A DNA stretch of 6,277 nucleotides from a virus. Lineage: Duplodnaviria; Heunggongvirae; Uroviricota; Caudoviricetes. The stretch is from IMG/VR virus record IMGVR_UViG_2713896736_000008; one strand, 5' to 3'. The notes under the pieces are model-generated. The model worked only from the letters and a program-made list of their open reading frames with translations, did not search any database and was not told the origin of the DNA. The first letter of the stretch is position 1; every line of letters starts with the position of its first letter. Of this stretch, positions 1,453 to 6,277 are shown piece after piece. A program made the translations under genes and the position numbers.

Positions 1453-3073
1453 TTAAAAATCAGCCTGATTCGGGATCAGTTTTTGCCAGATAACTGAAAC
1501 GTATTTTGCCTGGTAACGGGCGTCATCAAGTGCATTATGGCGCTCACCTTCGAATGGAATAGCCGTTCTGGCATCGAAGTCTATGGCTTTCCCCAGCTCA
1601 ACGATTGTGCGTACATCGCGATCGTTGTAGTAACGCCACGGGCAGGGGATCCCCTGCCGTTCGTATGAACGGCGCAAAATCGTGTTGTCGAAGTTGGCTC
1701 CATTTCCCCAGACCTGAACAAAAAATTCACCGGAGTTTTCGTCGATAAATTCCCGCAATTGTAATAGTGCATCATCTAACGGGATTTCATCGGTCATAAT
1801 GGCAGATTGCGCTTCGCGTGATTGCTTAAGCCACCATTTAATGGTGTCCCGATCAATGACCCCGCCAGCAGTTTCCAGATCGATAGTCTTACTAAATTCC
1901 GGTCCCATATCTCCGGTTTGCGGATCGAAAAATATTGCACCTATTGAGATGATCGGGGCATCAGGATTTTTTCCCATGGTTTCAAGGTCGATCATTAGAT
2001 GGTCACACGTCCTGCTGGTGGATGTGATTTCTTGATGACCGTTCACCTTAATTGAGTGATCTGCCGTCTCGCCAGTTTCATTATCGCTATCGTGATGCTG
2101 ATTGCCGTCAGTGTTCTCCTTGTGTGGATGTTCAGCGCCTTCCATTTCCTCCGGATCATCTTCCTGAACTTCAACCTGATACTCTTCATCGAATGTTTCC
2201 TGGTATGTTGCGTCGCCCATCACCGCGCCACAATCAGGGCAGTTGCCGCCGCCGGTCTGACCGCAGGCGGTGCAGACTTTTTCCGGTTCCTGTTGCGCTA
2301 CTGGCTCAGGTTGTTTCGTTTCTGGCTCGTTTTGTTGCGTATTTGGGCTGTTTTGTTCCGCTTTCTGGTCGTTCTGTTCCGTTTCTTGCTGGTTCTGGTT
2401 CACAGAATCGCGGGTTTCAATCCCCTTCACCCATTTCGGATCATTCGGGTCGCTAATCCCTGCAACAAATTCACCACGTGATGCGGCGAGCAACTGATTG
2501 GCGTCAGGCTGGCTGATATTGGCTGCCTGCATAATTTTCTTTACTTCGTCAGCGGTAACTTTTACCGGTTCTGGTTGTTCAGAATTTTGTGCGGTATTTG
2601 CATTTTGCGGTAAGCCTGTGTATGTGCCATTTTTTCGGGCAAAATATTCTTCTTTTGTGATTTCAGTAGCCCCGGCAGCCAGCGCCTTATCCAGACCAGA
2701 AAGTTTGTTTGCGCGACCGTATTTTTCGCCATCCTTGTCGGTGAAGAGGAAGTAGAACGGCCCCTCACGTTCTACAGATGGTTCGACTTCCACTTTGCAT
2801 TCGGTTTTTTCGTTGTCTGGAATTGCCGTTTCCACTGCATCAGTTTCTGGTACTGGCGACGAGAGAGTATCAGTTGCGCTCTGATTTGTTCCTTCATCTT
2901 CAAACACGCCCTTTGTAGTCAGGTATTCAGTAATGTATTTGTTCAGTGCCACAGGGTCTTTGTGAATGTCGATCGGACGTTCACGGACAAGGCCAAAAAT
3001 AGTCTGGCGGTCGTAGCGAAGGGCATCAGGCTGTTTGCGCATTGATGCCGAGATACGCTTCCAGTCTTCGCGG
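1453..3073 (-). CDS. RecE-family (exodeoxyribonuclease VIII-like) protein with C-terminal DnaQ-like DEDDh 3'-5' exonuclease domain; partial, 5' end lies in the N-masked region (about 539 codons visible)
   Basis: Long minus-strand ORF ending at the stop at 1453-1455. The central part (QLLAASRGEFVAGISDPNDPKWVKGIETRDSVNQNQQETEQNDQKAEQNSP...CTACGQTGGGNCPDCGAVMGDATYQETFDEEYQVE...PEEMEGAEHPH) matches, by recollection, the non-catalytic middle of Rac RecE. The C-terminal ~185 aa (about nt 1456-2010) carry DEDDh motifs: MIDLET (Asp-x-Glu), WGNGANFDNTIL (Asp), HNALDDARYQAKY (His...Asp). The 21-aa N-terminal extension the ORF track adds at 3480-3543 is discarded because that stretch is in the coding frame of the upstream gene. 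Confidence 0.85.
2014..2021 (+). other. Second Chi octamer 5'-GCTGGTGG-3', inside the exonuclease coding region, same orientation as the first
   Basis: Exact match read directly from the sequence. Confidence 0.5.
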
Positions 3074-3479
3074 NNNNNNNNNNNNNNNNNNNNNNNNNNN
3101 NNNNNNNNNNNNNNNNNNNNNNNNNNNNNNNNNNNNNNNNNNNNNNNNNNNNNNNNNNNNNNNNNNNNNNNNNNNNNNNNNNNNNNNNNNNNNNNNNNNN
3201 NNNNNNNNNNNNNNNNNNNNNNNNNNNNNNNNNNNNNNNNNNNNNNNNNNNNNNNNNNNNNNNNNNNNNNNNNNNNNNNNNNNNNNNNNNNNNNNNNNNN
3301 NNNNNNNNNNNNNNNNNNNNNNNNNNNNNNNNNNNNNNNNNNNNNNNNNNNNNNNNNNNNNNNNNNNNNNNNNNNNNNNNNNNNNNNNNNNNNNNNNNNN
3401 NNNNNNNNNNNNNNNNNNNNNNNNNNNNNNNNNNNNNNNNNNNNNNNNNNNNNNNNNNNNNNNNNNNNNNNNNNNNNNN
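3074..3479. other. 406-nt run of N (masked or unresolved sequence)
   Basis: Read directly. It hides the 3' end of the ORF at 3480-4051 and the 5' end of the exonuclease ORF. Every X run in the six-frame track comes from this block. Confidence 1.
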
Positions 3480-4051
3480 TCTGCCTGAATTTCGGGCCAT
3501 TTGGCACCAGGCTTACATTTATGCTTAACCCACCCGATGGCATGCAGCTTAAGCTCCGGATACATGGCGTTAACTTCTGGCATTTTCATCAACGCTTCAA
3601 CGATATGTCCGTCGAATGTTGCCATGTCTTCCTGCAACAATTCCTGCGCGCTAATCACCATATCAACGGTGATGTTTTCACATGTGTCGAACTTAACCAT
3701 GACAGCGTTCTGTACTTCAGGGGCCAGCTTGTCAAAAGCGACGTTCATCGGATCGGATTCAGTCTCAACCGGGACAAAGGAAGCAGCCCCCTCATCCCAG
3801 CGGTTTTCCTGCATATATTCAGCATCCCAGGAATCGAGGGCAGGGCGGGGTATACCGGGTTTATCCTCGCAAACAAGAAATTTATAAGCGCAGTCCTGAG
3901 CAGCCGGATAATGCTCCAGGAATTGCCAGTGAAATTTTGCGCGGGCGCGACGTTCATCACCGGCTTCAATGGCAGTGGCTACAGCGACTGCACCTTCTTC
4001 CTTTATTGCCTGTTCGTCCGGAATGGCGGCGCAAATAAAGACTTTACTCAT
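3480..4051 (-). CDS. Hypothetical prophage protein, at least 190 aa, 3' end hidden in the N run; positional equivalent of Qin ydfE (equivalence is tentative)
   Basis: ATG at 4051-4049 with GAGG Shine-Dalgarno 9 nt upstream (AATGAGGTAAAACAAA-ATG). Protein-like translation (MSKVFICAAIPDEQAIKEEGAVAVATAIEAGDERRARAKFHWQFLEHYPAAQD...). Sits immediately downstream (in transcription order) of ydfD/dicB. Reading frame differs from the exonuclease ORF, so with the N run at its stated length these are two genes. Confidence 0.7.
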
Positions 4052-4689: not shown

Positions 4690-4745
4690 AAAAAGGGCGG
4701 ACATCAGTTCATGGGCAAACAGATGCCGCCAAACGTCACCAGAAA
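4690..4745 (-). ncRNA. dicF: DicF small RNA homolog (about 56 nt) ending in an intrinsic terminator
   Basis: Minus strand reads UUUCUGGUGACGUUUGGCGGCAUCUGUUUGCCCAUGAACUGAUGUCCGCCCUUUUU. The 5' part UUUCUGGUGACGUUUGGCGG matches DicF as recalled from K-12. The 3' part forms a 9-bp stem with one bulged A (GGCGG(A)CAUC at 4696-4705 paired with GAUGCCGCC at 4722-4730 on the + strand) followed by U5 (4690-4694). Location just upstream of dicB matches the dicF-dicB arrangement. Confidence 0.72.
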
Positions 4746-5078: not shown

Positions 5079-5312
5079 ATGTTAAAATCAACTCTTATTG
5101 CTAAATGCCTTTATCAAAATCGCATGGTAAGCAGCATTTCAATAGGCGAGTCTGCAGTTAAAAGTATTTTCGAAGAGTACTTTCCCGGGCATGATTTTAA
5201 TAAATGGAATACCAAATTACCGCCAGCAGTTTCAACGCGTATTCTGAAAGCAACCGAAAGAGCAAGTACAATTCGCGTTAACTATTTCATTAAAGATTTG
5301 TGGGATCTTTGA
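5079..5312 (+). CDS. Hypothetical small protein, 77 aa, on the strand opposite the surrounding operon
   Basis: ATG at 5079 preceded by a strong Shine-Dalgarno AGGAGG (5069-5074, 4-nt spacer). AT-rich codon usage contrasts sharply with the GC-rich sequence immediately upstream. Its 3' end overlaps the convergent 135-aa gene by 23 nt. No family recognised. Confidence 0.55.
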   Translation: MLKSTLIAKCLYQNRMVSSISIGESAVKSIFEEYFPGHDFNKWNTKLPPAVSTRILKATERASTIRVNYFIKDLWDL

Positions 5313-5719: not shown

Positions 5720-5938
5720 TTAACGTGGGTATGTAATCATTCTGGCAATGCTTAATGCCGCTGCTTTTTCCAGATTGGTGATATCCTGCTCCAGAGCGGA
5801 CAGATTTTCAGCCTGCTTAGCCCTGGCTTCATTGGCCCATTTCAGGTCCTGCACCGCCTTAATTTTCTGGTGCATCCACTCATAAAGTTCATCATCGGTA
5901 TAGTCTGGCGCGATGATGACGGGGTCTCGTTTCTGCAT
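5720..5938 (-). CDS. Hypothetical small protein, 72 aa, predicted helical/coiled-coil
   Basis: ATG at 5938-5936 with a strong Shine-Dalgarno AAGGAG 4 nt upstream. First gene of the leftward gene string in this window. Occupies the position of the small ydfA/B/C-type ORFs of Qin, but its sequence is not confidently recognised. Confidence 0.7.
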   Translation of the reverse strand: MQKRDPVIIAPDYTDDELYEWMHQKIKAVQDLKWANEARAKQAENLSALEQDITNLEKAAALSIARMITYPR

Positions 5939-5970
5939 GTCGGCTCCTTGTGGTTAGCGTTGCCTGCTTT

Positions 5971-5998
5971 TTAACCACGTCAGGCGAGGTGGTATCCT
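5971..5998 (+). promoter_or_regulatory. Candidate sigma70 promoter for the zinc-ribbon gene in the divergent intergenic region
   Basis: TTAACC (5971-5976), 16-nt spacer, TATCCT (5993-5998), about 35 nt upstream of the ATG at 6032. Hexamers are weak (4/6 each); by eye only. Confidence 0.3.
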
Positions 5999-6031
5999 CT
6001 GAGGGGTCTGTTACTCGAGAGGAAATTGGTT

Positions 6032-6232
6032 ATGAATACAATCAAGTTTTCTTGCCCAGAATGTGGTGGCGAAGTCTTTGACACATCCTTTAAGCCGCAG
6101 GGCTCTGACAGTTTCGCGGGAGCCATCTGCAAAAATTGTGGTCACCTTGTAACTGAAGATGAGTCCTCGCAGTTCGATGACGAAATCGTTGACAATATCT
6201 TCGGTGCACTCACCAGAGACTTTCTGAAGTAA
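6032..6232 (+). CDS. Small zinc-ribbon protein with acidic C-terminal tail, 66 aa
   Basis: ATG at 6032 with GAGAGG Shine-Dalgarno 9 nt upstream (the track begins at an in-frame TTG at 6026). Two CxxC pairs (CPEC and CKNC, 22 residues apart) followed by an acidic tail EDESSQFDDEIVDNIF. Divergently transcribed from the 72-aa gene. Confidence 0.65.
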   Translation: MNTIKFSCPECGGEVFDTSFKPQGSDSFAGAICKNCGHLVTEDESSQFDDEIVDNIFGALTRDFLK

Positions 6233-6277
6233 AGGCGCATACCGCTTAGTTACCGCTCTGATAACTCTTACCTGCCC

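Follow-up and report, generated by a model that had tools for sequence, protein, structure and literature searches.

The stretch of DNA analysed here (the window; 6,277 nucleotides, IMG/VR record IMGVR_UViG_2713896736_000008) can be assigned to the left arm of a lambdoid prophage of the DicA/DicB type that adjoins ompW in Shiga-toxigenic Escherichia coli (STEC); annotated copies of the same DNA include 'PPompW' phages and many STEC chromosomes. Near its right end, on the plus strand and facing a leftward operon, lies a small open reading frame (ORF) for a putative zinc-ribbon protein, and this gene and its flanking sequences are the subject of the present work. The coding sequence, stop included, occupies positions 6032-6232 (+), from an ATG at 6032 to a TAA that ends at 6232, and specifies a product of 66 aa, MNTIKFSCPECGGEVFDTSFKPQGSDSFAGAICKNCGHLVTEDESSQFDDEIVDNIFGALTRDFLK; an alternative in-frame TTG start at 6026 would give a protein of 68 aa. 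A Shine-Dalgarno sequence, GAGGA (6019-6023, +), stands 8 nt before the ATG, within the right arm of the second of two leader hairpins described below. The ATG is separated by 93 bp (5939-6031) from that of the oppositely oriented gene ydfC (5720-5938, minus strand; 72 aa, annotated as protein YdfC, phrog_1744). The product carries two CxxC pairs (C8-P-E-C11 and C33-K-N-C36), no membrane segment or enzyme domain, and 12 D/E against 5 K/R residues (net charge about -7), with eight acidic residues between positions 42 and 63; it is predicted to be a cytoplasmic, soluble four-cysteine zinc ribbon, the motif suggesting that it binds zinc. Both the reading of the sequence and the ORF list bear out a preliminary description of this DNA in its account of an acidic ORF of 66 aa with two CxxC pairs, placed opposite a leftward operon across a gap of 93 bp.

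The same description had held the protein to be unrecognisable, which no longer applies. The NCBIfam profile NF047912 ('ECs_2282 family putative zinc-binding protein') aligns over its positions 1-56 of 60 with residues 4-59 at 57.3 bits, above its cutoff of 37, and PGAP gives the same name to this ORF in NZ_CP034801. On this match we place the protein in NF047912, a family without an assigned function. A word-indexed search retrieved 12 enterobacterial clusters, and an exhaustive profile search 81 representative clusters at E<=1e-3, nearly all of 60-75 aa and alignable from end to end. All 45 aligned relatives match NF047912, C8, C11, C33 and C36 are invariant among them, and the lengths of nearly all matches fall between 58 and 83 aa. 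The family consensus reads x4-F-x-C-P-x-C-G-x-E-x-F, then S-x-D-D-F-x-G-A-x-C-x2-C-G-H-x-(I/V)-T-E-D-D, followed by an amphipathic helix. The strongly acidic tail emphasised in the preliminary description is present in the window protein but is peculiar to the enterobacterial clade; since this C-terminal helix is basic or amphipathic in most members, the tail is a feature of the clade and not of the family. Members recur in temperate phages of Klebsiella, Citrobacter, Enterobacter, Serratia, Pectobacterium and Edwardsiella.

Several lines of evidence show that the ORF is a real gene under selection, among them its third-position bias and the retention of the four cysteines across the 81 clusters. 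Among 33 distinct E. coli-type sequences, the variable sites within the ORF are distributed 5/1/15 over codon positions 1/2/3, third-position variability being close to the rate of the flanking non-coding DNA. In a second, independent clade (L143 against L144) the corresponding differences are 6/3/24, with a pN/pS of 0.20 in the plus frame and 1.18 in the minus frame. Homologues at 59% and 41% identity preserve the H-x-V-T-E-D-D motif by synonymous changes, which in the minus frame are radical substitutions that turn residues FSY into VGD or LRH; across genera, dN/dS favours the plus frame only mildly. The gene is also widespread: 921 of 5,426 complete E. coli genomes (about one in six) hold at least 80% of the query.

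Directly opposite, in codon register, runs a second ORF on the minus strand (6011-6277 in the window, continuing past its end to a full 99 aa; L001 7312-7611). It is annotated as a gene elsewhere, with 118 aa in phage Evi (LR597642), as HK639_45 in HK639 (NC_016158) and as phrog_21318, and it could either form an antiparallel overlapping pair with the zinc-ribbon ORF, as a minus-strand gene of about 93-118 aa around it, or be the only gene of the two. Dual coding would account for the minus frame being open in most related phage lineages, for its reading invariably in the direction of the surrounding operon, for the ATG that often starts the minus ORF after a purine-rich stretch, and for third-position differences that, in non-E. 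coli lineages, are about twofold higher in the 26 non-overlapping N-terminal codons. We nonetheless consider it very unlikely. Within the overlap the minus frame has a pN/pS of about 1 or higher, and E. coli variation at minus-frame first codon positions proceeds at a roughly neutral rate; stops break the minus frame in L145, L135 and L137, where the plus ORF is intact; and to close the minus frame the real gene would have to use TTA, CTA or TCA codons, which are rare. The seemingly conserved N-terminus of the minus ORF (x-D-A-S, then I-D-I-T or I-D-I) is explained by the 3' hairpin described below, of which it is the arm and loop. That the minus ORF alone is the gene and the zinc ribbon an artefact is less probable still, to the point of being hardly credible: the minus ORF is the longer one and has been called by several pipelines, but for four cysteines to be invariant, 45 sequences that share about 30% identity must all have the same A at fourfold-degenerate third positions of the minus frame, the substitution patterns favour the plus frame, and in one non-phage homologue, co-directional with its neighbours, the minus frame is broken. 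From the substitution patterns, the broken minus frames and the cysteine constraint together we therefore read the 99-aa ORF as a shadow ORF and not a gene, and both forms of minus-strand coding were rejected. Many phage records and one PHROG family consequently describe the shadow ORF instead of the zinc-ribbon gene, and their annotation needs correction.

Searches beyond the family were of little help in assigning a function. No Pfam family exceeded its gathering score (best DUF5795, 23.4 against 27 bits), the family scans gave no match of the protein to a DNA-binding family, and the literature searched for ECs2282, the protein accession and PDC-M14 held nothing relevant. The structure prediction proposed in the preliminary description yielded poor AlphaFold2 models (pLDDT 58.6 with 7 sequences and 52.0 with 45), Foldseek against the PDB returned only generic zinc ribbons (best E=0.49), and a profile search of PDB sequences only generic zinc-site matches. 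A scan of genome contigs found two spurious loci only, and an alignment of 24 distant sequences was too diverse for locus searching. The PADLOC candidate PDC-M14A is weakly matched in its N-terminal part by three members (E from 2e-6 to 2e-3), and phrog_4852 is matched at E=1e-9. YdaE, the zinc-binding protein of the K-12 Rac prophage, was considered and set aside as unrelated (hhalign probability 0.3%).

A further resemblance is to Lar and RalR, and it is the sole, weak hint in favour of the functions first suggested for the protein, as DNA mimic, anti-restriction factor or inhibitor of a transcription factor, which otherwise find no support. The protein could accordingly be a distant relative acting in type I restriction alleviation, or as a DNase toxin paired, in a type I toxin-antitoxin system, with an antisense RNA. 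Twelve of the 45 family members match TIGR03655 at E<=1e-3 (best 3e-6), hhalign aligns the family profile with K-12 RalR at a probability of 53% over 31 zinc-ribbon columns, and both are prophage early-left genes for proteins of about 65 aa that are associated with an antisense RNA. The window protein itself, however, reaches only 15.7 bits (E=0.014) against a cutoff of 39.6, and the likeness is limited to the CPxCG...CxxC knuckles, the C-terminal halves being unrelated, so that we regard this kinship as unlikely.

More informative than the protein is the DNA that precedes it. The 93-bp region contains a hairpin formed by ACCAC (5974-5978), 10 nt and GTGGT (5989-5993), which is the invariant core of the leader. 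All E. coli-type copies are preceded by it, as are other genes, and its reverse complement appears as ACCACCGAGCCUGACGUGGU in the sas antisense RNA of phage P22, the sequence of which was taken from PMC13397905. Read on the minus strand, the block GCCTG..TTTTAACCAC-N10-GTGGT (5962-5993) is homologous to the 3' half of that RNA. A second hairpin follows, with TCCTCT (5995-6000), a 17-nt loop and AGAGGA (6018-6023), and emerges from the alignment with sas and lambda and from the variability of its stems: at this position 45 of the 83 unique leader variants can form a Watson-Crick stem of 6 bp or longer, against 1.5 in shuffles, and the stem sequence varies while the structure is kept. In the class with a short leader the right arm of hairpin 2 is the Shine-Dalgarno sequence itself, of the AAGGA or AGAGGA type in the variants that precede other genes. 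On the mRNA, hairpin 2 would sequester the Shine-Dalgarno sequence; on the minus strand it would form the second stem of a sas-like RNA. We also noted that GCCTG (5962-5966) could pair with CAGGC in the loop of hairpin 1 (5981-5985) as an alternative to that hairpin, which covariation is unable to probe because both segments are invariant.

The motif ACCAC-N-TCAGGC-NN-GGTGGTAT is present in the leader of every copy. A blastn search with the leader against phages returned 140 records, among them P22 and lambda (34388-34428; L154 1501-1541), where the motif lies 54-94 nt upstream of sieB, and its reverse complement corresponds to the 3' half of P22 sas (...GAACCACCGAGCCUGACGUGGUUAAAAGACAGGCAC...) in an alignment with 34 invariant columns. 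The sieB gene encodes one of four exclusion systems expressed from the P22 prophage (PMC10883804), and the sas antisense RNA switches its translation (PMC12197685). A pattern scan of IMG/VR located the motif at no fewer than 120 loci (L156-L275), and in viral contigs it precedes at least 30 unrelated ORF clusters, which we refer to as cargos. The sas RNA reportedly derives from the pL transcript (Ranade and Poteete, 1993). Among the matches listed, the commonest cargos are SieB (PF14163, matched by its cluster at 3e-25) and the zinc-ribbon family, tied at 16 or more each, followed by a membrane protein of 105 aa (at least 12), a protein of 76-81 aa (at least 10), one of 143-174 aa (at least 9), the SfII gene 36 type (at least 5) and many singletons; in these matches the ATG lies either 37-40 or 69-73 nt past the motif, and none of the cargo clusters matched a known defence family. 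In prophages of the Citrobacter freundii type (L003 5004-5025 and 5943-5964; L004-L007, L119 and L120), two copies of the leader lie about 940 bp apart and serve tandem slots, each ahead of a different plus-strand cargo: an unrelated ORF of 66 or 147 aa, followed by the zinc-ribbon gene. Rfam holds no family for the leader or for the 3' hairpin. The 93-bp region is not specific to the zinc-ribbon protein, as 30 or more unrelated ORFs follow the same leader; judged by these comparisons, it is a portable leader of the sieB/sas type, and neither a shared divergent control region nor a site dedicated to this protein.

Downstream of the gene, conservation extends without indels about 85 nt beyond the stop; the first part of this flank falls in the window (6233-6277, +). 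About 45 nt past the stop, and starting 2 nt beyond the window end in this lineage, is a terminator-like hairpin followed by a U-rich tract (L001 7580-7614, window-equivalent 6279-6313, +), consisting of ATGGCGCT, 13 nt and AGCGCCAT, then CGCTGTTTCTTT. It folds in 15 lineages with clade-specific stems (GGCGCT/AGCGCC, GGGGTGAT/ATCACCCC, GGGGTAAG/CTTACCCC, AGCGGTG/CACCGCT and TGGTGTT/AACACCA), compensatory changes affect 2 of 9 and 3 of 12 pairs, and its G-U pairs function on the plus-strand RNA only. HK639 and L147 have a textbook hairpin with a T-run.

The place occupied by this unit in the prophage could be determined from the operators. Repeats of the form TTAGG-N5/6-CTAA lie in the intergenic region between repressor and cro (OR copies at L001 8284-8322), and inverted copies at L001 7747-7763 and 7786-7800 bracket the minus-strand sequence TTGACC-18-TAAATT (7776-7747). 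We assign L001 7747-7800 (window-equivalent 6446-6499, past the window's right end) to a putative, pL-like promoter with its operator, pL/OL; the operator-like repeats at the putative OL and OR (L001 7747-7800 and 8284-8350) include the perfect palindrome CCTTAGGAAAATCTAAGG. With pL/OL to its right and ydfC, the first conserved gene of the leftward operon past the slot, to its left, the zinc-ribbon gene lies antisense inside the pL transcription unit, and not, as first proposed, on one side of a control region shared by two divergent transcripts. It is the place held by sieB in other phages: lambda sieB (34482-35036, plus strand) lies between N and orf28/ral, antisense to pL, and the sieB of Rac is antisense at the equivalent place. 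The suggestion that lambdoid phages often carry a moron here is thus borne out, the position being precisely that of sieB.

The slot has been filled in more than one way. In the otherwise collinear relatives PhiR42_1 and Tritos the slot holds ydfA-ydfB instead of the zinc-ribbon gene, and homology breaks at the ydfC ATG and at L001 7683. Immediately downstream of pL, L001 7683-7741 is a remnant of 60 nt, with 95% identity, in which the pL leader and the 5' end of a ydfA-like gene survive; from this remnant, and from the homology resuming exactly at the ydfC ATG, it follows that the zinc-ribbon unit replaced ydfA-ydfB. In all 11 phage contexts examined the family member opposes the surrounding operon. 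It is antisense and proximal to pL in C. freundii prophages, in HK639 (just after putL), in Klebsiella ST974-OXA48phi18.2 and in Edwardsiella Edno5; it follows directly after cro in Klebsiella variicola and Citrobacter amalonaticus; in myovirus-type prophages it sits between tube and chaperone or between spike and sheath-initiator genes; and a non-phage metagenomic locus is the only context in which it is co-directional with its neighbours. In the myovirus-type loci (L134 4998-5279, L135 and L145) the upstream sequence differs, with a promoter-like TTTACG-16-TATATT, and the 3' hairpin is of the same kind. These contexts, after cro, in tail and baseplate operons and at a non-phage locus, are too varied for a dedicated partnership with YdfC or the repressor. 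A partnership with YdfC, which the preliminary description had proposed to look for, is further contradicted by E. coli, where most genomes have YdfC but no zinc-ribbon gene, 3,844 genomes matching the query and only 921 holding at least 80% of it, and by the ydfA-ydfB pair that takes the slot in relatives.

The same observations bear on whether the protein could be a local regulator that controls the leftward operon by binding the 93-bp region or, as an antirepressor, the DicA-like repressor. An antirepressor would make sense because the repressor of this prophage is a helix-turn-helix (HTH) protein of 135 aa without a Peptidase_S24 domain, and the leader does hold the palindrome ACCAC-N10-GTGGT. 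This palindrome, however, is part of the leader common to at least 30 unrelated cargos and to lambda and P22 sieB; the family also occurs beside cleavable repressors of the S24 type, as well as in the other contexts just listed; the protein matches no DNA-binding family; and pL/OL is located elsewhere. We regard a regulatory role of this kind as decidedly improbable. Because it takes the sieB position behind the same conserved leader, the gene probably serves the prophage as an accessory gene and not as a local regulator.

Taken together, these results lead us to propose that the zinc-ribbon gene is exchangeable cargo, a moron, in the sieB slot of a lambdoid prophage of the DicA/DicB type, possibly with an exclusion function, a reading to which we give a probability of roughly 0.55. 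By analogy with sieB, the gene would have a promoter of its own and be transcribed from it in the lysogen, as long as pL stays repressed. Once pL becomes active, upon induction or from an incoming related phage, the leftward transcript would yield a sas-like antisense RNA covering the Shine-Dalgarno sequence and start codon, and this RNA would stop translation of the cargo. Through this antisense shut-off of translation the lytic growth of the carrier phage may escape its own cargo. The protein itself would most likely bind a protein or nucleic-acid target through its zinc ribbon and the conserved surfaces formed by S-x-D-D-F-x-G-A and C-G-H-x-V-T-E-D-D. With less confidence, and again by analogy, we take the likeliest role to be one that benefits the prophage, superinfection exclusion or abortive infection directed at competing phages being examples.

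Several observations weigh against the proposal that the gene is sieB-slot cargo. First, no expression data were found for the gene, no member of the family has a known function, PADLOC offers only the weak N-terminal match to PDC-M14A, and the lack of any known defence family extends to all the cargo clusters listed. Second, a consensus scan found no sigma-70 promoter of at least 9 out of 12 in the leader; a possible promoter noticed by eye, TTAACC-16-TGgTATCCT (5971-5998), is below the threshold of the scan, and its -10 element is absent from the lambda and P22 leaders. Third, the 3' hairpin of the window lineage has a 13-nt loop and a weak U-tract and was not flagged by the terminator scan. 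Fourth, family members in tail or baseplate operons and after cro lack a leader of the sieB type; because members found elsewhere than in lambdoid early regions have different upstream sequences, the family as such is not tied to sas-type control. Finally, a nonsense allele, E14* (GAA>TAA), is common to 23 of the 111 E. coli-type copies sampled, the others being 86 intact copies, one with E44* and one with an indel; the gene is therefore dispensable in at least one lineage.

This last point raises the alternative that the gene is a decaying passenger, a former cargo that no longer matters in STEC prophages that are largely defective. The E14* allele, the E44* copy and the indel would fit such decay. 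Yet the remaining copies show a strong third-position bias, the E14* copies carry one allele and probably represent one lineage, and the copy in the window is intact, which makes decay an improbable explanation in our judgement. The E14* change falls at window position 6071 (codon 14) and was seen in L066-L090, L107-L112 and L162; it probably accounts for the 'partial' proteins of 53-55 aa at NCBI (P0003 and P0004).

Its placement in the sieB slot, behind the sieB/sas leader, makes of a protein so far anonymous and hypothetical a candidate for prophage-mediated exclusion that can be put to the test. It is tempting to go one step further and to speculate, with considerable reservation, that the two-hairpin leader of sieB/sas might be a general plug-in module of lambdoid phages, which would combine expression of a cargo in the lysogen with self-immunity through an antisense RNA derived from pL. 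No description of such a plug-in nature was found in the searchable papers, although older subscription literature may cover it. Were this true, the dozens of unrelated cargos would represent an unmined reservoir of effectors of superinfection exclusion or abortive infection, and the 66-aa zinc ribbon a new, minimal effector whose ECs_2282 family is among the commonest cargos. The sequence TTTTMACCACNTCAGGCNNGGTGG offers a simple handle for collecting further candidates.

The remainder of the window conforms to the left arm of such a prophage. On the minus strand, from left to right, it encodes an integrase, an excisionase, a 3'-5' exonuclease, a DUF1482/YdfD protein, DicB (PF05358, 6e-37), a protein of 135 aa and YdfC; right of the window end follow the HTH repressor on the minus strand and then cro, a YdaT-like gene and the replication genes on the plus strand. 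A run of N at 3045-3480 covers part of the exonuclease gene, and the ORFs of 696 and 341 aa in the ORF list are fragments of this single gene of 823 aa (L001 2881-5352). Just upstream of dicB lies a DicF-like RNA (window 4695-4744, minus strand; L001 5996-6045; 43.5 bits, E=1e-7), on which the default scan of the window was silent because its score is below the Rfam gathering score of 48. Another plus-strand ORF opposes the leftward operon at 5079-5312 (77 aa, hypothetical protein WP_000920491; L001 6380-6613); it overlaps the 3' end of the gene for the 135-aa protein and has no leader of the sieB type.

Known systems were compared with both the protein and the locus. As to the protein, NF047912 agrees in length and in the CPxCG...CxxCG(H) spacing and is matched over its full length, with no structural difference, although the wider membership mostly has a basic C-terminal helix where the window protein is acidic. 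Lar and RalR (TIGR03655, PF14354) are likewise small four-cysteine zinc ribbons encoded in early-left operons of prophages and show weak profile similarity, whereas the window protein stays below the cutoff of their family and differs throughout its C-terminal half. PDC-M14A and phrog_4852 resemble the family zinc ribbon in their N-terminal 60-odd residues, but their profiles are 152 and 194 positions long. As to the locus, the sieB/sas systems of P22, lambda and Rac share the slot, antisense within the pL operon and close to pL, and have a leader that is homologous: it contains the ACCAC-N10-GTGGT hairpin and a further one, and its complement matches the 3' half of sas. They differ in that SieB, with about 190 aa, is a membrane protein (PF14163) and the window protein a soluble zinc ribbon of 66 aa without a match to PF14163, in the ATG, which lies about 70 nt past the motif in sieB and 39 nt past it here, and in the internal Esc-like product, none of which is evident for the zinc-ribbon gene. 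Phage morons are units of promoter, gene and terminator, examples being HK97 gp15 and lambda bor and lom. The zinc-ribbon unit is similarly self-contained, with its own leader and a terminator-like hairpin, opposes the operon of its host phage and lies between genes that are adjacent or differently separated in relatives; it departs from them in its 5' part, which is not private to the gene but appears as a conserved docking and regulatory module common to many cargos.

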